Shown in pieces: positions 3,593 to 31,030 of a stretch of 32,000 nt of DNA. The position numbers and the translations under genes are program-made. The first letter of the stretch is position 1. Each line of letters opens with the position of its first letter. Origin of the DNA: Candidatus Methylomirabilis limnetica (GTDB lineage Bacteria; Methylomirabilota; Methylomirabilia; Methylomirabilales; Methylomirabilaceae); the NCBI RefSeq assembly GCF_003044035.1, contig NZ_NVQC01000022.1, positions 1 through 32,000 of the forward strand, written 5' to 3'. Below the pieces are notes generated by a model that saw only the letters and a program-made list of their open reading frames with translations, made no database searches and was not told the origin of the DNA.

Positions 3593-3778
3593 ATGAATCT
3601 GATAGCTAAGATTCACGCGGCCCTGGAGCGCCATTATGGCTCTAAGAAGGCGCGCAGGGCTCTGAGCAATCCACTCGATGGCCTGATCCTTGCCATCCTT
3701 TCCCAAAAGACCCGCAAGACGCATACCCCCGCGCGTGACGACCGTCTCCCCTCCAATCTCTGTCCCTCTGCCCGATGA
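3593..3778 (+). pseudogene. possible remnant of an HhH-GPD (endonuclease III-like) gene, N-terminal ~40 codons only
   Basis: MNLIAKIHAALERHYGSKKARRALSNPLDGLILAILSQKT resembles the N-terminus of Nth-like proteins (...LI.TILSQ.T), and similarity is then lost. The stop overlaps the next gene's start as ATGA (3775-3778). Confidence 0.3.
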
Positions 3779-5319
3779 CATCGGCGTCACTCTTCGGTTT
3801 GGACGAACTGGGGCGCGATCCGCACCTTCTGGCTGTCCAGGCGGTCGCGGCCGGCGGCAGGGTGGGCCCCCTGTATCTGGTCGGTGGGTACCTGCGTGAT
3901 TTTCTGCTTGGCTCCTTCGACGTGGCTAATGACAGGCGTGGCAGGGCGAAGCGGATCGACCTCGATCTGGTGATCTGGGGGAAACCGGAACTGTTCGGTC
4001 GCGATCTGGTCACGGCCCTGGAAGGCAGCCTCATTCGCCTCGAACCAGAGACGGTTCGGGCCATCGTTAGATCCCCGATCGGGGTCGAGGACAGGTCTGC
4101 AGGGATGATCGTCCAGATCGACATCAGTCGATCGAAGGGCGAGACAATCGAAGACGATTTGGCTCTCCGCGACTTTACGGTGAATGCCATGGCCGTGAGG
4201 CTCGACACCCGACACCCGACACCCGACACCCTGTCTTTAATTGATCCGGCGGGTGGGCTGAACGATCTAAAGGAAAAGCGCCTTCGAGCCCTTGCCCCAT
4301 CGGCATTCGATCGCGATCCGCTTCGCCTGATCAGGGCAATTCGCCTGGCTGCAGAGCTTGGCTTCACTATTGAGGAGACTACTCGGCAGTGGATCGTCGA
4401 GCGCGCATCGCTCCTCGGAACAGTAGCCGGGGAGCGTCTGCGAGACGAGCTGTTCAGGGTCCTCGATACGGTCCCCGCAACGCCTTGGATCGAGCACCTC
4501 GACGTCCTGCAGCTTCTGAAGGTGCTGGTCCCGGAGGTAGAGGCGCTCAAATCAGTTCCGGCAAGCATGCCGCATCGTCTGCCCCTCTGGGAACACTCGC
4601 TTCAGACGCTTCGGTCTGTCGAACTGCTGCTCACGAATCTTGAGCAGCTCTTTCCGGAAGACGCCCTCTGGTTACGCGAGCGGCTCGGCCTGGAGATCGA
4701 GGCTGGCGTCACCGAGGCCGCCATCCTCAAGCTGCTGGGGTTCCTGCACGACATCGGCAAGCCGGAGACTCGGAGCATACAACCAGATGGTCGAGTCCGG
4801 TTCCTGGGGCACGAGCAGGCCGGTCTGCCAGTCCTCACTCGCCTATGCGAACGCCTTCGCCTGGGTCGGCGGGCAACAAACCTCGTAACCAACATCGAGC
4901 GATATCATCTGCGGCCGATCCATCTCTCGAGTCTGGCAACGGTCACCGCCAGTGCGCAGTATCGTTTCTTCCGGGAGCTGGGTGATGTTGCCCCCGTTGT
5001 GCTGTTGCACTCCTGGGCGGATCTGCTGGCCACGATCGGTGGGGAAGCCGAGGAGTTCAGCCGGCATCAGGTATTCCTGCGCGAGGCGTTCCGATTCTAC
5101 AGAGCCGAGTTCATGGCAAGCCAGGTAAAGCCCATCGTGCGAGGAGACGATCTGATCAGGATGTTCGGCGTTGTGCCAGGCCCTTTCCTGGGATACGTAC
5201 TTGATCGCTTGCGGGAAGCTCAGGCGACTGGGCTCTTCAACAGCCGCGAGGATGCTCTGGCTTACGTCCAGGAACATCTTGTATCGTGGCAGCAGTCGTT
5301 CGAGGTGCGACCCTCTTGA
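3775..5319 (+). CDS. cca: tRNA nucleotidyltransferase/poly(A) polymerase family protein with C-terminal HD domain (CCA-adding enzyme-like)
   Basis: YLVGGYLRDFLLG and IDLDLV form the nucleotidyltransferase head. RDFTVNAM and DPLRLIRAIRLAAELGF are present. The HD motif is FLHDIGKP...FLGHEQAG. Confidence 0.75.
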   Translation: MTSASLFGLDELGRDPHLLAVQAVAAGGRVGPLYLVGGYLRDFLLGSFDVANDRRGRAKRIDLDLVIWGKPELFGRDLVTALEGSLIRLEPETVRAIVRSPIGVEDRSAGMIVQIDISRSKGETIEDDLALRDFTVNAMAVRLDTRHPTPDTLSLIDPAGGLNDLKEKRLRALAPSAFDRDPLRLIRAIRLAAELGFTIEETTRQWIVERASLLGTVAGERLRDELFRVLDTVPATPWIEHLDVLQLLKVLVPEVEALKSVPASMPHRLPLWEHSLQTLRSVELLLTNLEQLFPEDALWLRERLGLEIEAGVTEAAILKLLGFLHDIGKPETRSIQPDGRVRFLGHEQAGLPVLTRLCERLRLGRRATNLVTNIERYHLRPIHLSSLATVTASAQYRFFRELGDVAPVVLLHSWADLLATIGGEAEEFSRHQVFLREAFRFYRAEFMASQVKPIVRGDDLIRMFGVVPGPFLGYVLDRLREAQATGLFNSREDALAYVQEHLVSWQQSFEVRPS

Positions 5320-5389: not shown

Positions 5390-5464
<75 letters not shown>

Positions 5465-5468
5465 CGTT

Positions 5469-5503
5469 GGTCAGCGTTCAGCCATCAGCGGTCAGGTTTC
5501 AGC
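5469..5503. repeat. tandem heptamer array, 5 x NNTCAGC
   Basis: GGTCAGC GTTCAGC CATCAGC GGTCAGG TTTCAGC lies immediately 3' of the tRNA. It is the inverted counterpart of the array at 5723-5757. Confidence 0.75.
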
Positions 5504-5580
5504 TTCTGAAGTGCCCTCAAGTCTCCAAGGATTTCCCTATGCTTGGTCTGGGTTGTAAGCGTGGCACTGTACGGGAGGAC

Positions 5581-5624
5581 TGTAGGCCCTCTCGTAACGG
5601 GCGGGGATAAACCCCGCCCCTACA
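5581..5624. repeat. GC-rich palindromic hairpin element
   Basis: TGTAGG...GGGCGGGG-ATAAA-CCCCGCCC-CTACA: an 8-bp G/C stem with outer TGTAGG/CCTACA pairing. Confidence 0.5.
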
Positions 5625-5722
5625 AAGCGGAACTGCCGGGTTGAGTGAGTTCGGTTGACGCCGAGTCCTGTTGCTCATACACTGAACACGTTCGGGTTAT
5701 AGCCGTCAGTCTTCAGCGTGTT

Positions 5723-5757
5723 GCTGAGAGCTGATTGCTGATTGCTGGTTGCTGATT
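5723..5757. repeat. tandem heptamer array, 5 x GCTGANN
   Basis: GCTGAGA GCTGATT GCTGATT GCTGGTT GCTGATT ends 20 nt upstream of the pfp ATG. Confidence 0.75.
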
Positions 5758-5776: not shown

Positions 5777-7015
5777 ATGAAAACGCTTGGCATACTGGTT
5801 GGAGGTGGCCCCGCGCCAGGCATTAATGGCGTGATCGCTGCTGCGACGATGGAGGCTCGCAACCATGGGGTACGCGTCCTCGGCTTCTACGATGGGTTCA
5901 AATGGCTTGCACGAGGCGACGTAAGCCACGTGATAGAGCTCGAAATCGATGAGGTGTCTCGGATCCATTTCGAAGGGGGTTCTATCCTTCGAACGGCCAG
6001 GGAGAATCCGACCAAATCCCCGGATGCGCTCCGAAATGTGGTCGAGGCGCTGAACAAATTGGAGGTGTCATGCCTGTTGACAATCGGGGGTGATGACACC
6101 GCCTTCGCGGCGTGTCGGCTATCGGAAGCCGTGCAGGGTCGAGTCGCCGTCGCGCATGTGCCGAAGACGATCGACAACGACCTCCCACTCCCGCAGGAGG
6201 TGGCGACGTTTGGCTTTACGACGGCTTGCAACCTGGGCAAAGAGATCGTTCAGAATCTAATGGAGGATGCGGTGACGGCGAATCGCTGGTTCTTCGTCAC
6301 AGTGATGGGCCGACGGGCGGGCCATCTGGCGCTTGGCATAGGAGGCTCTGCCGGCGCCACTTTAACGGTCATCGGAGAGGAGTTTCCAGAACCGAGGATC
6401 CCCCTTCAGACGCTGGTTGACATCCTGGAAGGCGCTATCATCAAGCGGCGCGCCTCCGGGAAGGGGTACGGCCTGGCGATTCTGAGCGAAGGGCTGGCCG
6501 ATAAACTTGATCCTGCTGATTTCGGCTCGGTTGAGCGGGACGGTTATGGGAATGTCCGTCTCTCGGAGCTTGTGTTGGGGCGAGTGCTGAAAGAGCGGGT
6601 TACTGAAAGCCTTCGCGCGCGAGGTGTCGATGTGACGATCGTAGCTAAAGATCTTGGCTATGAGCTCCGCTGCGCTCCACCCGGCGCACTGGATATCCTA
6701 TATTGCCGCGGTCTTGGCTATTGGGCCACCCGTTTTCTGTTGGACGGTCACACGGAGGCCATGGTGACCATCCAGGGGGGGAAGATGGTCCCAATCCCGT
6801 TTCAGCAGATGTTGGATCATCGGACAGGGAAGATCCGTGTCCGGTACGTTGATATCAACTCCGAGTCGTATCGGACGCTCCGGGCCTATATGATCCGCTT
6901 GGAGCCTCAAGACTTTGAGACGCCAGGGCAGATCGAGACGCTCGCGCATGGCGGGCGCCTCGATCAGGCTGAATTCGTAAGCCGGTTTAGTTATCTTGGC
7001 GATCGACGCTCATAG
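5777..7015 (+). CDS. pfp: 6-phosphofructokinase, pyrophosphate-dependent type by signature residues
   Basis: GILVGGGPAPGINGVI, TIGGDDT (Asp where ATP-PFKs have GGDG), VPKTIDNDL (Lys where ATP-PFKs have Gly) and MGRRAGHLAL. Confidence 0.85.
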   Translation: MKTLGILVGGGPAPGINGVIAAATMEARNHGVRVLGFYDGFKWLARGDVSHVIELEIDEVSRIHFEGGSILRTARENPTKSPDALRNVVEALNKLEVSCLLTIGGDDTAFAACRLSEAVQGRVAVAHVPKTIDNDLPLPQEVATFGFTTACNLGKEIVQNLMEDAVTANRWFFVTVMGRRAGHLALGIGGSAGATLTVIGEEFPEPRIPLQTLVDILEGAIIKRRASGKGYGLAILSEGLADKLDPADFGSVERDGYGNVRLSELVLGRVLKERVTESLRARGVDVTIVAKDLGYELRCAPPGALDILYCRGLGYWATRFLLDGHTEAMVTIQGGKMVPIPFQQMLDHRTGKIRVRYVDINSESYRTLRAYMIRLEPQDFETPGQIETLAHGGRLDQAEFVSRFSYLGDRRS

Positions 7016-16454: not shown

Positions 16455-16694
16455 ATGAGCAGAGCAATGTCCAAACGGATCGCGTTAGGGGTGCTCGTGC
16501 TCGGGTTAACCACGGGGTGCGCCGGGATGTCGACGCGTCAGCAGCGTGCCTTGAGCGGAGGCGCCATTGGCGCGGCCGGTGGGGCTGTCGTAGGCGTCAT
16601 GGCCGGTAGTCCGGCTACCGGCGCCATTGTGGGCGGAGCGATAGGAACGGCTACAGGCGCCATGTGGGATGATATCAAGAAATCGCTGAAGTGA
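16455..16694 (+). CDS. glycine-zipper lipoprotein (YMGG/OsmB-like)
   Basis: Lipobox LTTGC. Glycine-zipper run GGAIGAAGGAVVGVMAGSPATGAIVGGAIGTATG. AAGGAG Shine-Dalgarno is present. Confidence 0.8.
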   Translation: MSRAMSKRIALGVLVLGLTTGCAGMSTRQQRALSGGAIGAAGGAVVGVMAGSPATGAIVGGAIGTATGAMWDDIKKSLK

Positions 16695-25824: not shown

Positions 25825-26490
25825 TCAGATGGTTTTCTCCGGCCAGGAGCAGAGGTGGCGGACCGGGCAGTGCGGGCAGTCTGGCTTCCTGGCCATGCAG
25901 ATGCGCCGACCGTGGAAGACAAGCAGGTGGGTGAGGAGGGTCCACTTCTCTTTCGGCACAACCCGGCAGAGCTGTTGCTCTATCTCATCCGGCTTGTTGC
26001 TGGCGGCCAGGCCAAGGCGGTTTGCCACCCGCGTGACATGGGTGTCCACCGCGATCCCCTCGGTGATGCCGAAGGCGTTGCCCAGGACGATGTTGGCCGT
26101 CTTGCGCCATACGCCGGGCAGCGTGATTAGTTCCTCCATCGTCTGCGGCACTAGCCCGCCGAACTCCTCGACCAGCTTCTTACAGCAGCCGATGATGCTC
26201 CTGGCCTTGTTCCGGTAAAAGCCTGTCGATCGGATCGCTTCCTCCATCTCTACCGGGTCAGCATCGGCAAGCACCTGTGGGGTCGGATACCGCTTGAACA
26301 ACCCCTTCGTAACCTGATTCACCCGCTCGTCCGTGCACTGGGCAGCCAGGATTGTCGCGATGAGTAGTTGGAATGGGTTCGTGAAGTCGAGCGTCACGTG
26401 GGCATCGGGATAGGATGACTCGATGATGGCCAGGATTTTCTTGGCCTTAGCTGGGGTAGCGGTGAGGATATCGCTTTTTTGCTGTTTCAC
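25825..26490 (-). CDS. nth: endonuclease III
   Basis: FQLLIATILAAQCTD, HhH-GPD motif LPGVWRKTANIVLG...VDTHV, and Fe-S cluster C-x6-C-x2-C-x5-C (CMARKPDCPHCPVRHLC). The GTG start overlaps the pyrD TGA. Confidence 0.92.
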   Translation of the reverse strand: MKQQKSDILTATPAKAKKILAIIESSYPDAHVTLDFTNPFQLLIATILAAQCTDERVNQVTKGLFKRYPTPQVLADADPVEMEEAIRSTGFYRNKARSIIGCCKKLVEEFGGLVPQTMEELITLPGVWRKTANIVLGNAFGITEGIAVDTHVTRVANRLGLAASNKPDEIEQQLCRVVPKEKWTLLTHLLVFHGRRICMARKPDCPHCPVRHLCSWPEKTI

Positions 26491-27458
26491 CTTGATCCCC
26501 CTGCTACCTCCCGCGGGGTACCGGTGAGATCCAGGGAGCCAATGAGATCGGTTACACGTTTGATCTTGTGGTCGATTAGATACGCTTCGATCCCATCAAT
26601 GACCCGTGTAGCACTGCTTGGTGAGGTGAAGTTGGCCGTCCCAACCGCCACTGCCGTGGCCCCCGCGATAAGGAACTCGAGCGCGTCGTCCGCCGTCATG
26701 ATCCCACCCATCCCAATGAGCGGCAGCTTCACCGCTCGCGCTACCTCCCACACCATTCGGACAGCGATCGGCCGGATGGCGGGGCCGGAGAGCCCGCCGG
26801 TCACGTTGCCGAGCTTCGGCCGCCGGCTTCGTACGTCGATGGCCATACCGATCAGCGTGTTGATGAGGGAGAGCGCGTCGGCCCCACCCTCTGCCAGCGC
26901 TCTGGCAATCTCAGCAACATCAGTGACGTTCGGGGAGAGCTTTGGAATGAGTGGAAGTCGAGTAGCCTGTCGCACGCGCGCGACCAGTTTGTTGGCCAGC
27001 ACAGCATTGCAGCCAAAAATCAAGCCATCAGCCACGTTGGGACACGAGATGTTCAATTCGATCCCGCTGACTCCCTCCTGATCGCTCAGCCGCTTCGCCA
27101 GCTCAACATAGTCCTCGACCGACTCCCCGGCGATATTGACGATGACGGGGGGCCCAAGCCCGATAAGATAGGGAAGTTTCTCTCTGAGGAAGGCCTCGAT
27201 GCCAACATTCTGAAGGCCGATTGCGTTCAGCATCCCGGCCGGGGTCTCGACAATCCGGGAAGGCTGGGCTCCGACGCGAGGGTGCAGCGTGATGGTCTTG
27301 ACCACGATGGCTCCCAGGCGTGAGAGATCCAGGTACGACTCAAACTCCTGAGCATAGCCGAAAGTCCCGGAGGCGGTCATTACCGGGTTCCGCATGGAGA
27401 TGCCGGCAACAGTCACGCGCAGGTCTGGTCGTTTGACGCGGCTCACGACAGGTTTCAT
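26487..27458 (-). CDS. pyrD: dihydroorotate dehydrogenase catalytic subunit (class 1B)
   Basis: NPVMTASGTFGY, GAIVVKT, ELNISCPN, LIPKLSPN, GADALSLINT, GGLSGPAIRPIA and GMGGI. ATG 27458 overlaps the pabC stop as ATGA. The ORF is open to 27482, but that part is repeat sequence. Confidence 0.92.
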   Translation of the reverse strand: MKPVVSRVKRPDLRVTVAGISMRNPVMTASGTFGYAQEFESYLDLSRLGAIVVKTITLHPRVGAQPSRIVETPAGMLNAIGLQNVGIEAFLREKLPYLIGLGPPVIVNIAGESVEDYVELAKRLSDQEGVSGIELNISCPNVADGLIFGCNAVLANKLVARVRQATRLPLIPKLSPNVTDVAEIARALAEGGADALSLINTLIGMAIDVRSRRPKLGNVTGGLSGPAIRPIAVRMVWEVARAVKLPLIGMGGIMTADDALEFLIAGATAVAVGTANFTSPSSATRVIDGIEAYLIDHKIKRVTDLIGSLDLTGTPREVAGGSR

Positions 27459-28468
27459 GATTTCGCGCCTCGCATCTCGCACCCTTCAAATCCCCCCGTG
27501 CCCCCCTTTCGTAAAGGGGGGGTGGGGGGTTTTGCACCTCGCATCCCTTGTGTCCGCTCTTCCTCCACGGCTGTTCGGTAGCACCTTTGGAGACGTTGCG
27601 TCACAGGGCCGGGGCTTCCGGTACCGATCTTATTGCCGTCGATTGCGACAAGCGGCATGATCTCCTTCAGAGAGCCGGTCAGGAACGCCTCCTCGGACGC
27701 GAGGAGGTCCTGAAGCGGCAGAGGCGCCTCGCGGAGGATCAGGCCCTCCTTTTTCGTGAGCTCGATTACTACTTCCCTCGTAATGCCCGGTAAGAGCCCC
27801 GAGCTTAAGGGAGGGGTTGTCAGCACCCCCTTCGAGAACGAGAACAGATTACTCGTGGCCCCCTCGACGACGCAGTTATCGCGATCGACAAACAGGGCCT
27901 CCTGAGCCCCTTCGCGTTGCGCCTGTACCATCGCCAGCATGTTATAGAGGTAGCCAAGCGACTTGATTTGGAGTGGGTTGAATGGGCTCCCCCAGTGAAC
28001 CATGACCGCGTCGATCCCGACCTGCTGACGTTCGGCGATCCCAGCATACAAGGGCCTGGCGACCAACAGCAGCGTGGGTGAAGGGGGCACGTCGGGAGGC
28101 AGGAGGGAACCGAGCACGTCCGGGCCTCTCGTAACCGTCAACCGCAAAGAGGCATCAGCGGCCCGCAGGCTACTCCGCCGGAGCAGTTGACCCATCACCT
28201 GCCGCCACTCGCCAACGTCATCTTCGAACGGAATCCCGATCTGATCGGCGCCCTTCTTGAGGCGAGCGAGGTGGCGCTCAAGGCCAAAGACCCACCCGGC
28301 ATACGCTCGGATGGTTTCGAAGAGGCCATCGCCATACGAGAACCCGCGGTCGAACGCCGACACCTTCGCCCGCTCGGCCTGCACGTAGCGCCCATTCAGA
28401 TAGACAATTGCGTTCATTGCGTCTTTTGCGGCCATTGCGTTGATTGCGTCCATTGCGTTACGCGGCAC
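27455..28468 (-). CDS. pabC: class IV aminotransferase-fold protein, probably aminodeoxychorismate lyase
   Basis: VSAFDRGFSYGDGLFETIRAY, SNLFSFSKGVLTTPP and LPGITREVV, immediately downstream of pabB. The N-terminus is uncertain (GTG 28468; ATGs at 28453, 28435 and 28417). The C-terminal ~29 aa are repeat-encoded. Confidence 0.75.
   Translation of the reverse strand: MPRNAMDAINAMAAKDAMNAIVYLNGRYVQAERAKVSAFDRGFSYGDGLFETIRAYAGWVFGLERHLARLKKGADQIGIPFEDDVGEWRQVMGQLLRRSSLRAADASLRLTVTRGPDVLGSLLPPDVPPSPTLLLVARPLYAGIAERQQVGIDAVMVHWGSPFNPLQIKSLGYLYNMLAMVQAQREGAQEALFVDRDNCVVEGATSNLFSFSKGVLTTPPLSSGLLPGITREVVIELTKKEGLILREAPLPLQDLLASEEAFLTGSLKEIMPLVAIDGNKIGTGSPGPVTQRLQRCYRTAVEEERTQGMRGAKPPTPPLRKGGTGGFEGCEMRGAKS
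27468..27546. repeat. G-run palindromic element, copy R1
   Basis: CAAATCCCCCCGTGCCCCCCTTTCGTAAAGGGGGGGTGGGGGGTTTTGCACCTCGCA forms a long imperfect hairpin. It lies within the last ~29 codons of the pabC ORF. Confidence 0.85.
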
Positions 28469-28507
28469 GCTATGAACGCGTCACGCTGCACGCAATAGAC
28501 GCAATTA
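28407..28507. repeat. 9-bp-periodic junction cassette X (pabB|pabC)
   Basis: Six units of ATTGCGT(N2) lie at 28407, 28416, 28425, 28434, 28443 and 28452. They are followed by GGCACGCT..CACGCTGCACGCAATAGACGCAAT. A 16-bp inverted repeat pairs 28443-28458 with 28490-28505 (15 of 16 positions). Confidence 0.85.
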
Positions 28508-29932
28508 CCTTCCAAAACCAGCGCCCACGCCGAGGGTCCGAAAGAAGGTTTCGGCCTTTAACAACGTCTCCTCGTACTCTCGTATCGGCGAAGAGTCGGC
28601 CACGATCCCGCCGCCGGTCTGAAAATAGATCCGTCTGCCTGTCACGATGGCCGTCCGGATAGCGACGTTCAGCTCCATCGCGCCGGAGAACCCGATGAAC
28701 CCGATCGCCCCGGTGTAGAGGCCACGAGCCGTTGGCTCCACTTCGTCGATCACCTCCATCGCGCGGATCTTGGGGGCTCCGGTGATGGAGCCGCCAGGGA
28801 AGGTGGCCCGCAAACAGTCGATCGGGTCCGCCCCCTCATCGAGAATGCCTGCCACGGTTGAGACCATGTGGTGGAGGGTGTGGTAGGTCTCGATCGTCTC
28901 GAACTGCTCCACGTGCACAGAGCCGACCCGACAGATCCTACCCAAATCGTTTCGCTCCAGGTCCACGATCATCACATGTTCGGCGCGCTCCTTGGGATCG
29001 CGACGCAGGTGGCCAATGATGCGCGCATCATCCTCTAGCGTCATCCCGCGAGGGTGGGTCCCCTTTATCGGGCAGGTCGAGATCCGATTCCCCTCCACCA
29101 GCAGGAACCGTTCCGGGGAGTTGGACAGCACATGGAAGGGACCACAGTGAAGGTACGCCCCGAAGGACGCGGGGAAGCGGGTCCGAAGGCGCCGGTAGAG
29201 GGCCCAGGGATCGCCCGAAAAGTGAGTAGCGAAGCGCTGCGAGATGTTGGCCTGATAAATGTCACCCGCCGCGATGTATTCCAACACCGCCTCTAGCGCC
29301 TTGAAGTAGTACGCTTTTGACATGTTGCTCTCGAGGGGAGCCTCGGTGTGCGGCAAATCAGGCGGCGTACTACGAGCGATCAGCCGGGCCTGCCGGATCA
29401 AGTCAAGGCCTTCCTGCAACCGCTCCCGAGCTCGCCGCTCCCGGTCGGCACCGGGGGGGAGAGGCAAGCCGGACGAGGTGACGAGAAGCCGTCCCGTTCC
29501 CGGTTCGAACCAGAAGAGGAGGTCGTAGAAATGGATCACGCAGTCCGGAAGCCCAAGGTCGTCCACCGCCACGGCCGGCAGTATTTCGAGGTGGTGTCGA
29601 AGGTCGTAACCGAAGTAGCCGATGGCGCCGGCTGCTGGAAATTCCCGAACATGCGTGATGTCACCAAACTGCCGGAGAAGCGTCTGAAGGTGCCGGAATG
29701 GATCGCCGGTGAGTCGGCTTAGCCTACCCTCCCGCAAGATGGTGATCTCCTGCCCTTTCGCCGAGAAGGTGAGGAACGGATCATAACCAAAGCACGTAGC
29801 CCGCCAGTGATTGGTAGCCCAAGGATCAGCATCCAGGAGACTGGAACCGGGCCGGGCGGCGACCAGACCAAAAAGATCCGCGATGGCGGGCGGATTTGGG
29901 ACTTCCTCTATTATTGCGTCCATTGCGTCCAT
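28505..29932 (-). CDS. pabB: aminodeoxychorismate synthase component I (chorismate-binding, TrpE/PabB family)
   Basis: GDIYQANISQRF, SNSPERFL, IKGT.PRG, ERAEHVMIVDLERND, PGGSITGAPKIRAME, RGLYTGAIG and IRT....GGGIVADS. Confidence 0.85.
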   Translation of the reverse strand: MDAMDAIIEEVPNPPAIADLFGLVAARPGSSLLDADPWATNHWRATCFGYDPFLTFSAKGQEITILREGRLSRLTGDPFRHLQTLLRQFGDITHVREFPAAGAIGYFGYDLRHHLEILPAVAVDDLGLPDCVIHFYDLLFWFEPGTGRLLVTSSGLPLPPGADRERRARERLQEGLDLIRQARLIARSTPPDLPHTEAPLESNMSKAYYFKALEAVLEYIAAGDIYQANISQRFATHFSGDPWALYRRLRTRFPASFGAYLHCGPFHVLSNSPERFLLVEGNRISTCPIKGTHPRGMTLEDDARIIGHLRRDPKERAEHVMIVDLERNDLGRICRVGSVHVEQFETIETYHTLHHMVSTVAGILDEGADPIDCLRATFPGGSITGAPKIRAMEVIDEVEPTARGLYTGAIGFIGFSGAMELNVAIRTAIVTGRRIYFQTGGGIVADSSPIREYEETLLKAETFFRTLGVGAGFGR

Positions 29933-30004
29933 TGCGTCTGTCGCGTCGGTGCGTTCATGGCGTTCATGGCGTTTATTGCGTTTGTGGCACGCTGCACGCG
30001 ATTA
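29913..30004. repeat. 9-bp-periodic junction cassette Y (pyrK|pabB)
   Basis: Eight units with a GCGT core lie at 29916, 29925, 29934, 29943, 29951, 29960, 29969 and 29978. They are followed by GGCACGCTGCACGCGATTAA, which includes the pyrK stop codon. This cassette is homologous to cassette X. Confidence 0.85.
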
Positions 30005-30967
30005 AGGCCAGAGGATGTCGTAACCGTCAAAGACTGGCCCGTCCTTGCAAACGAGGCGGTAGGTCCGACCTGCTTGGCTGGCAGACAGGTCTTGTTCGCC
30101 ACCCTTCACCGGTACGACGCAGCCCATGCAGGCCCCGAAGCCGCAGGCCATGCTCGCTTCCATGGAGGCCTGATAGGGCAGCTCATATTTTTCGGCAATC
30201 GTCGCAAGAGCCGCCAGCATGGGATGCGGGCCGCAGGCGTAAATCCCCCCAACCCCCCTTTTATAAAGGGGGGAACTGGCGGATTTGGGGTGCGAGGTGT
30301 TGAGATACTGCTCCAGCAGTTCGGTCACCAACCCTTTCTGACCGGCGCTGCCATCTTCTGTGGCCACGTGAATCTTTGCGCCGACCCGCTTAAAATCGAC
30401 GGTACACAGCAGATCAGCCTTAGATCTCCCGCCGAGAAAGACGGTCATCTTCGTTTCGCGTGATGCTCGGCGCGTGGCAAGACCCTCAGCAAGGGCGGCA
30501 ATCGGAGGGACACCGATTCCGCCAGCAACCAGGAACACCTCCGTTGCGGAACGTGGAACCTCAAAGCCGTTCCCCAAGGGGCCGAGAGCCCGGAGGGACC
30601 TACCTGGACGCATCGTCGCCAGGAGCGCCGTCCCGCGGCCACACACCTTGTACAAAATCTCTACCTCGCACCCCGGATCGGTGTCCGGGGCAGGCCCCGC
30701 ACGCCAAATCCCCCCGTGCCCCTTAAATCCCCCCGTGCCCCCCTTTGATAAAGGGGGGTTGGGGGGGGTTTTTACACTTCGGATGCTCAAGGCTCGAGGC
30801 AGCAGCGGATCCAGTCCATCTGTACATCCAAGCATGAGAAACTGGCCAGGGCGGAATCTGGCCAGGTATCGAGGGCCAACCAGACGCATCGAAAAGTACT
30901 CCGGTGCGATCTGCCGATTGGACACCACTTCAACTTGGACCTCAGATGCCGTCGCCATTCCCCGCAC
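30002..30967 (-). CDS. pyrK: dihydroorotate dehydrogenase electron-transfer subunit (FAD/2Fe-2S), carrying two in-frame repeat insertions
   Basis: RPGQFLML, LPRALSI, GPLGNGF, VAGGIGVPP, IYACGP and 2Fe-2S motif CGFGACMGCV...VCKDGPVF. The protein is about 45 aa longer than typical PyrK because of the elements at 30236-30298 and 30664-30785. The start is GTG 30967 or ATG 30958. Confidence 0.88.
   Translation of the reverse strand: MRGMATASEVQVEVVSNRQIAPEYFSMRLVGPRYLARFRPGQFLMLGCTDGLDPLLPRALSIRSVKTPPNPPLSKGGTGGFKGHGGIWRAGPAPDTDPGCEVEILYKVCGRGTALLATMRPGRSLRALGPLGNGFEVPRSATEVFLVAGGIGVPPIAALAEGLATRRASRETKMTVFLGGRSKADLLCTVDFKRVGAKIHVATEDGSAGQKGLVTELLEQYLNTSHPKSASSPLYKRGVGGIYACGPHPMLAALATIAEKYELPYQASMEASMACGFGACMGCVVPVKGGEQDLSASQAGRTYRLVCKDGPVFDGYDILWP
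30236..30298. repeat. G-run palindromic element, copy R2 (inverted orientation), inside pyrK
   Basis: AAATCCCCCCAACCCCCCTTTTATAAAGGGGGGAACTGGCGGATTTGGGGTGCGAGGTG is translated in the pyrK frame as KSASSPLYKRGVGG. Confidence 0.85.
30664..30785. repeat. G-run palindromic element, copy R3 (partially duplicated, with extra CCCCGGA/TCCGGGG hairpin), inside pyrK
   Basis: CCTCGCACCCCGGATCGGTGTCCGGGG...AAATCCCCCCGTGCCCCTTAAATCCCCCCGTGCCCCCCTTTGATAAAGGGGGGTTGGGGGGGGTTTTTACACTTCGGA is translated in frame as KTPPNPPLSKGGTGGFKGHGGIWRAGPAPDTDPG. Confidence 0.85.
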
Positions 30968-31030
30968 CCCTCAAATCCCCCCGTGCCCCCCTTTACCAAA
31001 GGGGGGTTGGAGGGGGTTTTGCACTTCGCA
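30962..31030. repeat. G-run palindromic element, copy R4, between carB stop and pyrK start
   Basis: CCGCACCCCTCAAATCCCCCCGTGCCCCCCTTTACCAAAGGGGGGTTGGAGGGGGTTTTGCACTTCGCA. Its end overlaps the pyrK start region. Confidence 0.85.

Follow-up and report, generated by a model that had tools for sequence, protein, structure and literature searches.

The short tandemly repeated repetitive (STRR) sequences of cyanobacteria are heptanucleotide tandem repeats dispersed in the intergenic regions of one lineage, and the contingency loci of pathogens are slippage-prone repeats that shift a reading frame or the spacing of a promoter. On the whole, short tandem repeats are depleted in prokaryotes (PMC12699852). 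Mycobacterial interspersed repetitive units (MIRUs), in the summary that PMC3184786 gives of Supply et al. (1997), are dispersed, intercistronic in operons and co-transcribed, with small open reading frames (ORFs) that overlap their neighbors; the same account has them absent from the homologous sites of relatives and variable in copy number between strains. Repetitive extragenic palindromes and bacterial interspersed mosaic elements (REP/BIME), and miniature inverted-repeat transposable elements (MITEs), are small, non-coding, dispersed elements between operon genes (PMC3184786). The tandem repeats of Borgs, which are archaeal extrachromosomal elements, are reported to turn over rapidly and to originate independently at each site (PMC9879509). 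Here we describe cassettes of 9-bp repeats in 32,000 nucleotides of Candidatus Methylomirabilis limnetica (contig NZ_NVQC01000022.1, positions 1 to 32,000; hereafter the window), two of which, X and Y, occupy the gene junctions on either side of pabB. An original prediction, made from the sequence alone, had proposed for them a mobile junction element, a periodic binding array or a slippage-prone tract. We consider it rather likely that X and Y belong to a dispersed, hypervariable family of short-tandem-repeat cassettes in a Candidatus Methylomirabilis (NC10) lineage, which colonizes junctions between co-directional genes.

Results

The minus strand is the coding strand for all genes in the cassette region, and cassette sequences are given here in mRNA sense, in which the order is carB, pyrK, cassette Y, pabB, cassette X, pabC, pyrD, nth. 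X and Y, both on the minus strand, are homologous cassettes with a GCGT-rich head followed by six to eight ACGCNAYNR units. As predicted, they share one design: both have the head GCAGCGTG(A/C)C, and Tandem Repeats Finder recovered 9-bp arrays at 28407-28458 (5.8 copies) and 29913-29982 (7.9 copies). In the window, 13 copies of the heptamer ACGCAAT were counted where 3.0 are expected, a number that none of 100 shuffles reached, and 11 of the 13 fall within X and Y. A third match to GCAGCGTGCC, at 16541, falls in a small ORF that looks by eye like a glycine-rich lipoprotein; we take this match to be chance. The same junctions were found in independent assemblies from seven samples (Y at six of seven loci, X at all seven), so neither cassette is an assembly artifact.

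Cassette Y (29909-30005) comprises everything that stands in place of the ancestral pyrK tail, a 5-nt spacer and the first 21 pabB codons. Its GCGT-rich head (29982-30001; TCGCGTGCAGCGTGCCACAA) has a phase of about 7 nt and the reverse-complement sense of the ACGC units, and its array (29911-29981) holds eight ACGCNAYNR units, one of them 8 nt long. Y reads TAA-TCGCGTGCAGCGTGCC-ACAA, then the eight units ACGCAATAA, ACGCCATGA, ACGCCATGA, ACGCACCG, ACGCGACAG, ACGCAATGG, ACGCAATGG and ACGCAATAA, then TA-GAGGAAG…; the unit ACGCACCG is the single 8-nt step that had been noticed earlier. Cassette X (28406-28504) replaces an ancestral 15-18 nt, (A/G)GGAAGCGA-ATG-GCC, comprising the Shine-Dalgarno sequence and start of pabC. 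The X head (28459-28504) has inverted ATTGCGT units at 28499-28505 and 28490-28496, then GCGT heptamers including GCGTGCAGCGTG, and the array (28405-28458) has six units with in-frame AUGs at 28453, 28435 and 28417. X reads TAA-TTGCGTCTATTGCGTGCAGCGTGACGCGTTCATAGCGTGCCGCGTA, then ACGCAATGG, ACGCAATCA, ACGCAATGG, CCGCAAAAG, ACGCAATGA and ACGCAATTG, then TCTATCTG….

Sixty units from all cassette loci, in 26 distinct variants, gave the consensus ACGC-N-A-Y-N-R. Conservation is uneven (ACGC.A..R), with positions 1-4 and 6 almost invariant, position 9 a purine and position 8 free. In base composition the arrays are rich in A and C (A 35-40%, C 26-33%, G 20-24%, T 8-12%).

Both junctions were compared with those of relatives, L207, L209 and L211, whose pabB DNA is 95, 89 and 81% identical to that of the window. 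On these alignments X and Y are derived replacements of native junctions, because close relatives keep the gene order with tight junctions free of these cassettes. The order pyrK-pabB-pabC is kept in all three, with pyrD next where the contig reaches it (L211); in L209 pabC is followed by a truncated gene without a family call. At pyrK/pabB the relatives have an ATGA overlap or a 5-nt gap. At pabB/pabC they have TAA or TAG, (A/G)GGAAGCGA, then ATG GCC (G/A)TT GTC TAT, that is, a stop, AGGAAGCGA and ATGGCC, the ancestral junction sequence being AGGAAGCGAATGGCC. When the window is aligned with L207 at Y, homology ends after CTCTGGCC and restarts at GAGGAAGTCCC, and Y replaced about 104 nt: the last 11 pyrK codons, the spacer and the first 21 pabB codons. 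The pyrK gene is 11 codons longer in L207 and reads through a different cassette in L209 and L211. Alignment with L207, L209, L211 and a sister strain, L214, shows that X replaced 15-18 nt.

Y brought a new TAA for pyrK (30002-30004) and new AUGs for pabB. Since pabB also ends in GGTAA in L209 and L211, its TAA at X is probably native; in the empty X sites nearest to the window, those of L207 and L214, pabB ends in TAG instead. The proposal that the cassettes supply the stop codon of the upstream gene thus held for Y and probably fails for X. A reading of Y-pabB-X as an integron attC/gene cassette was rejected, as relatives without cassettes have pabB at the same place.

A third cassette, Z, lies at the pyrD/nth junction in L214 and L218, not in the window. 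Z replaces about 75 nt, made up of the end of the upstream gene and the beginning of the downstream one; its head supplies a TAG stop and its end an ATG. That head is not intact: Z has nothing but ACGCTGC heptamers (reverse complement GCAGCGT) amid its units, and no small ORF overlaps the genes flanking it.

A metagenome scan for GCGTGCAGCGTG, a gap of 2-30 nt and then ACGCNATNNACGC, of the kind that had been suggested as a check, found two further loci. At rtcB/rmuC on L235 (7261-7404), from the same metagenome as L215, a head and 13 units take up all 160 nt between the genes, as far as the rmuC ATG, and the array contains an ORF of 28 codons whose stop overlaps the rmuC start as ATGA. On L223, upstream of rng, the preceding ORF (radical-SAM-like as read by eye) continues across the cassette until its stop overlaps the rng start, again as ATGA. 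A peptide search with array translations gave only five weak matches; one of them pointed to L243, a contig whose metagenome also holds another copy of the L214-type locus. L243 has two arrays of ACGCAAT-type units without the GCGTGCAGCGTG head: the first (L243a) stands just before the N-terminus of an ABC-transporter ORF, with an in-frame AUG, and the second (L243b) lies inside that ORF, which is split by an ATGA from the unit ACGCAATGA.

The cassettes are therefore dispersed. Four unrelated junctions (Y, X, L235 and L223) have the 12-nt head GCGTGCAGCGTG together with a common unit consensus, the Y head itself recurs at L235 and L223, and same-strand genes flank all of Y, X, Z, L235 and L223, each of which is in sense orientation. 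No shared function links the genes beside the arrays, which are pyr/pab, rtcB/rmuC, rng and an ABC-transporter fragment.

At L243:1606-2284, in a region rich in toxin-antitoxin genes and about 750 bp from the ACGCAAT arrays, there is a split Y1_Tnp (IS200/RAYT-like) gene with the inverted repeat CGGGTCGGACC / GGTCCGACCCG on its flanks. It was considered as a partner of the cassettes and rejected, since its own flanking inverted repeat is unrelated to them and no sequence link was found.

The sister strains compared have pabB DNA about 95% identical to that of the window, except L004 at 99.5%. The comparison of unit numbers that the original prediction had called for gave 6, 8 or 9 units in Y. 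The window has eight units in Y, X present and Z absent, with the ancestral pyrD/nth overlap. L004 has nine units in Y, the extra one being ACGCCATAA, and X present, with Z beyond the contig; the two therefore differ by one Y unit at 99.5% identity. L217 and L218 have nine units in Y, X with its units reshuffled, and Z. L214 and L215 have six units in Y and a duplicated head, Z present, and X absent with the ancestral junction. Y and X are both absent from L207, L209 and L211, with an AGACC-type cassette in place of Y in the latter two; Z is absent from L211 and lies beyond the contig in L207 and L209. Most changes in unit number fall upstream of in-frame AUGs and leave the protein unaltered; the PabB of L214 is 3 residues shorter (MDAII… vs. 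MDAMDAII…).

Y is older than X, because L214 has Y but the ancestral pabB/pabC junction. The cassettes persist across about 10-13% divergence at fourfold sites. The heads differ at 1 of 72 nt between window and L217, vs. about 11% at fourfold sites (P = 0.002), and so seemed to be under constraint; this argument was withdrawn because Y lies in a tract, roughly 30700-29800, that is 98-100% identical between window and L217 and that probably reflects recent recombination.

All of these genes read on the minus strand. Upstream of Y, pyrK (30002-30967) encodes the electron-transfer subunit of dihydroorotate dehydrogenase (Pfam NAD_binding_1 and DHODB_Fe-S_bind). Pfam also bore out the two gene names given earlier: between Y and X, pabB (28505-29932; Chorismate_bind) encodes aminodeoxychorismate synthase component I, and pabC (27455 to about 28453; Aminotran_4) encodes aminodeoxychorismate lyase, starting within the X array and overlapping pyrD at its 3' end. 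pyrD (26487-27482) is followed by nth.

Every unit had been thought to offer an AUG to the downstream gene, which was not the case. AUGs occur in three of the six units of X, all in the pabC frame, and in four of the eight units of Y, where only the last two (29932-29930 and 29923-29921) are in the pabB frame. The other two Y AUGs open a predicted upstream ORF of 18 codons (29967-29911, minus strand; MNAMNAPTRQTQWTQWTQ and a stop) in the +1 frame, which overlaps the pabB starts. No other in-frame ATG, GTG or TTG was seen ahead of the conserved PabB residues when the frame was read by eye, which leaves the two array AUGs as the sole plausible pabB starts. For pabC, the start candidates are limited to the three X-array AUGs, of which the ATGGCC at 28435 may be the retained ancestral start. 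Public pabC calls disagree among cassette-bearing strains (332, 326 or 298 aa). About two thirds of the neighboring genes have a Shine-Dalgarno-like motif; pabB and pabC have none. No promoter-like or terminator-like site that would account for the cassettes was found in the region.

PabB homologs (74-95% protein identity, mostly 488-495 aa) begin MTPSSSIP…DLLAEEVPNPP, an N-terminus absent from the PabB of the window, which begins MDAMDAIIEEVPNPP. This tail is poorly conserved among homologs and evidently dispensable. The named homologs are annotated as Candidatus Methylomirabilis, candidate division NC10 or Methylomirabilota. In L209, (ACGCCGC)x4 at 4040-4075 lies in the 5' coding region of pabB and adds 7 residues (495 vs. 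488 aa).

pyrK and pyrD normally encode the two subunits of one dihydroorotate dehydrogenase and are usually adjacent. In L211 and in the cassette-bearing strains (window, L214 and L218) pabB and pabC sit between them; the L207 and L209 contigs show pyrK-pabB-pabC only. Just outside the window (L001:5115-5563), a DUF4258/DUF2283 gene pair is inserted between carA and carB, a position taken by a methyltransferase in L211.

Folding of the junction RNAs, another check proposed with the original prediction, gave different results at the two cassettes, X being structured and Y folding like its shuffles. The predicted X stem-loop (28406-28506, minus strand) has a free energy of -47.5 kcal/mol (z = -3.4), with none of 200 shuffles as stable; in it the two inverted units that directly follow the pabB stop are paired with the final forward units, where the AUG at 28417 lies. 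The inverted repeat is longer than first noted, extending to 28443-28470 / 28478-28505 (28 nt, 79% complementary), and several registers are possible. In L217 the X hairpin is weaker and in another register (z = -1.95). Z is structured (z = -3.5 and -4.1). No inverted repeat was found in Y, and no fold beyond that of shuffles was seen for Y (z = -0.5), its L214 form (z = -0.1) or L243a (z = -0.2); the L235 array folds worse than all 200 of its shuffles (z = +2.8). In a search with Rfam 15, the sole match at the gathering threshold in the window was a tRNA, and 28300-30100 gave two chance-level matches (21 and 16 bits vs. thresholds of 100 and 108). As for a Rho-utilization site, C exceeds G in the arrays, but YC dimers are few (2-7 per array).

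Other unit families coexist with ACGCAAT in NC10, namely AGACC and TCAGC, and other NC10 unit families share the layout of inverted units, then forward units, then ATG. The AGACC-type 9-mer cassette was found at L209:3960-4003, L211:9935-10003 and L243:2850-2922, with inverted GGTCTNTTCC units, then forward NANAGACC units, ending …GACCAGCCA(A)TG. In L209 and L211 it stands at pyrK/pabB, where pyrK reads through it to an ATGA overlap, and in L243 ahead of another ORF; its hairpins have z-scores of -3.2 to -5.0. The pyrK/pabB junction is a hot spot of cassette turnover, and junction-filling short-repeat cassettes look like a general habit of NC10 genomes, which stands out against the overall depletion of short tandem repeats in prokaryotes (PMC12699852).

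Further repeats were seen in the same genomes. Directly after rmuC, L235:8795-8901 holds (ATTTCGTCT)x3.9 and (GACCAAAT)x7.6, which differ in period and whose units are near reverse complements of each other. In the window, inverted heptamer arrays, (NNTCAGC)5 at 5466-5500 and (TTGCTGA)5 at 5721-5757, flank about 220 bp with a GC-rich hairpin at about 5598-5625. The whole is bounded by a tRNA gene (5390-5461) and a gene start at 5777, and its layout is foldback-like, with arms of tandem units. A perfect (CGACACC)x4 at 4203-4231 lies inside the ORF 3775-5319, where it is read …DTRHPTPDT…. The palindromic element CCCCCTTTNNNAAAGGGGG has four copies in the window (27502-27520, 30254-30272, 30739-30757 and 30987-31005) against 0.19 expected, with G-rich flanks that translate as PPLxKGGxGGF. 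Two copies are in frame inside pyrK, one extends the C-terminus of pabC and one lies at carB/pyrK; the pyrK insertions are shared with L214, and L209 and L211 have none. This element is a second small repeat family invading the same operon, coding sequence included.

A scan of 185,579 genomes for three copies of ACGCAATNN gave at least 120 loci in many phyla. On viral contigs, a permuted control pattern (three copies of CAGCTAANN) gave 56 loci vs. 23 for ACGCAAT. We do not claim a single cross-phylum ACGCAAT family: the permuted control was commoner in viral contigs, and the inverted-head design was clear in only 1 of 62 cross-phylum arrays among the matches listed, that of L018 (Armatimonadota). 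Because 9-mer arrays are common as such, as the control scan showed, the cross-phylum matches are no proof of one family. Long variant-rich arrays made up 40 of the 143 genome matches listed vs. 1 of 26 and 3 of 61 viral ones, in sets that are unmatched. Among the matches listed, degenerate AACGCNATNA arrays fill consecutive junctions in metagenome-assembled genomes (MAGs) of Nitrospirota, Eubacteriales, Acidobacteriota and Armatimonadota. Arrays of AACGC(A/T/G)A(T/C)NA with up to 22 units were seen in Eubacteriales, Nitrospirota and Acidobacteriota MAGs (L082, L099, L110, L067, L081, L083 and others); some alternate 8- and 9-nt units, and they often lie 0-13 nt from ORF ends.

Discussion

Under the explanation that we prefer, copies of the cassette would have been written into co-directional junctions, overwriting dispensable gene tails, a Shine-Dalgarno sequence and a start codon, and bringing their own stops (in head or units) and AUGs (in the array). 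Units would then be gained and lost by slippage, which never breaks the frame because the period is 9 nt. Copies may have spread by microhomology-guided template switching or by gene conversion from a nearby copy. pabB and pabC would start at array AUGs without a Shine-Dalgarno sequence, either by coupling to, or re-initiation after, the upstream cistron or by initiation independent of such a sequence on an A/C-rich leader (predicted to be unstructured only at L235). At X, a ribosome terminating on pabB might melt the hairpin and expose the pabC AUG. We infer that the cassettes are mobile, and that the elements are selfish or neutral rather than adaptive. Of the ideas in the original prediction, the mobile junction element is the best supported, in that the cassettes are derived, dispersed and sense-oriented; no transposase link or mechanism accompanied them.

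Several observations weigh against this explanation. The pattern of Y, X and Z among strains of about 95% identity fits no single tree without recombination or repeated gain and loss, and only about seven arrays at six loci were observed. The cassettes showed no target-site duplication or terminal inverted repeat and no enzyme was seen to accompany them, and both well-resolved events are replacements, not clean insertions. The strongly uneven conservation of the unit is not accounted for by neutral slippage alone. The design also varies: X and Z have hairpins and Y, L235 and L243a have none, and the Z array has no internal AUG, so that several AUGs per array are not universal.

Each array might instead have been born in place, from native sequence by replication slippage or duplication, with no copying between loci. 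The ancestral pabC start region, AAGCGAATGGCC, is closely unit-like, and X contains ACGCAATGGCC; other NC10 junctions carry arrays of unrelated units (the AGACC type, L235:8795-8901 and the heptamers at 5466-5757 of the window), the permuted 9-mer outnumbers ACGCAAT in viral contigs, and independent origins and rapid evolution are reported for Borg repeats (PMC9879509). We nevertheless regard independent birth as unlikely, as the same 12-nt head and unit consensus stand at Y, X, L235 and L223, Y predates X, and the native sequence at the Y and Z sites is unlike the unit. A wider reading, that the cassettes are one case of an undescribed class of repeat element, is possible though doubtful. Such elements would be foldback-like or head-plus-array modules of 7-9-nt units, specific to co-directional junctions, that overwrite stop, Shine-Dalgarno sequence and start with their own stops and an unstructured multi-AUG leader. 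Their distribution, with several unit families in NC10 and very similar arrays in MAGs of other phyla, would then imply a dedicated copying mechanism or a shared host factor recognizing ACGC.A..R.

Two further explanations give the arrays a function. In one, an oligomeric protein, TRAP/HutP-like or nucleoid-associated, would bind the ACGCAAU units as RNA or DNA and regulate the junction, which would suit the conservation of positions 1-4 and 6 and of a purine at 9 across the 60 units, the predicted single-strandedness of the L235 array as RNA, and the sense orientation at every gene junction seen. However, the cassettes do not behave as a conserved regulatory site, because they come and go between sister strains beside unrelated genes: X and Z are each absent from one of three Y-carrying sister strains of about 95% pabB identity, L207 (also about 95%) lacks Y and X, and L209 and L211 likewise lack ACGCAAT cassettes. 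Unit number and order vary freely, there is no Rfam family match, and the variable positions 5 and 8 are third-codon positions of a (D/N)-A-(M/I/T) frame, which offers another cause of the pattern. No sign of a TRAP-like regulator emerged, and we hold this part of the original prediction to be highly improbable. In the other, slippage would be selected to tune start choice, N-terminal length or expression of pabB and pabC. Whole units are indeed gained and lost between strains, once even at 99.5% pabB identity, and L214 PabB is the shorter by 3 residues, so as a mutational behavior the slippage-prone tract is supported. Its adaptive part is scarcely credible: a 9-nt step is unable to switch a frame on or off, most changes lie upstream of in-frame AUGs and give the same protein, the N-terminal tail is poorly conserved and evidently dispensable, and arrays kept across about 10-13% fourfold-site divergence are not fast switches.

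The comparative data support the reading of the cassettes as junction elements, and we make no claim of a function beyond their being tolerated through their own stops and starts. If this reading is correct, pabB and pabC show that essential biosynthetic genes, here in a pyrimidine operon, can lose ribosome-binding site and start to a repeat cassette and nonetheless be retained over a long period. They would then serve, in an uncultured phylum, as a naturally occurring test of initiation that is coupled or independent of a Shine-Dalgarno sequence. The cassettes would also be ready hypervariable markers for typing Methylomirabilis strains. For gene callers they are a warning, given that public pabC starts already conflict among cassette-bearing strains. 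If the cross-phylum lead is true, cassettes of this kind would represent a general, overlooked route of operon-junction evolution.

Comparison with known repeat elements

No earlier description of 9-bp or nonanucleotide arrays, of ACGCAAT or of Methylomirabilis repeats was found in the literature searched. A CRISPR array is excluded, as had been predicted, by 9-nt units that stand head to tail without spacers (CRISPR repeats are about 23-47 bp, with unique spacers). A conserved site of the TRAP/HutP type was rejected because X is absent from L214, Z from the window and all cassettes from L207, L209 and L211 (Z being checkable only in L211). The cassettes resemble contingency loci in having slippage-prone repeats at the 5' ends of genes, but membership among phase-variable repeats was rejected: the 9-nt unit is divisible by 3 and so preserves the frame, giving no on/off switch, and there is no promoter-like site in the region.

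Like REP/BIME elements and MITEs, the cassettes are small, dispersed and intra-operonic, and the X and Z copies fold into stem-loops. However, REP/BIME membership needs an imperfect palindrome of 21-65 nt in each copy, and neither Y (z = -0.5) nor L235 (z = +2.8) has one, nor has L243a; a conserved GTAG-type head is missing, tandem units make up the body, and no RAYT (REP-associated tyrosine transposase) gene adjoins the cassettes in the window. Membership of the MITEs was rejected because filled and empty sites show replacement (about 104 nt at Y, 15-18 nt at X, about 75 nt at Z), with no terminal repeats and no duplicated flank.

With the Borg repeats the cassettes share fast, recent and lineage-specific evolution and a unit length divisible by three where they touch coding sequence; they differ in repeating the same head and unit at several loci. 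They recall the cyanobacterial STRR sequences as very short tandem units dispersed between genes in a single lineage, but their period is 9 nt (a 7-nt phase is found in the head only), they are joined directly to stop and start codons, and they combine an inverted head with a forward array.

The nearest analog appears to be the MIRU, to which the cassettes are analogous without being members. They bear no sequence relation to MIRUs and belong to another phylum (NC10); against a MIRU unit of about 40-100 bp, they have a 9-nt unit and a separate GCGT-rich head, and they replaced coding tails, a Shine-Dalgarno sequence and a start codon, with no tetranucleotide direct repeats at the filled sites. 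The likenesses are nonetheless several. Both types of element lie between co-directional operon genes, with which the cassettes, too, would be transcribed, the cassettes in one orientation (Y, X, Z, L235 and L223, with L243b in a broken ORF). At L235, L223 and Y, though not at Z, small ORFs overlap the flanking stops or starts. As with MIRUs, too, there are empty sites in relatives (L207, L209, L211 and L214) and a copy number that differs between strains, with 6, 8 or 9 units in Y.

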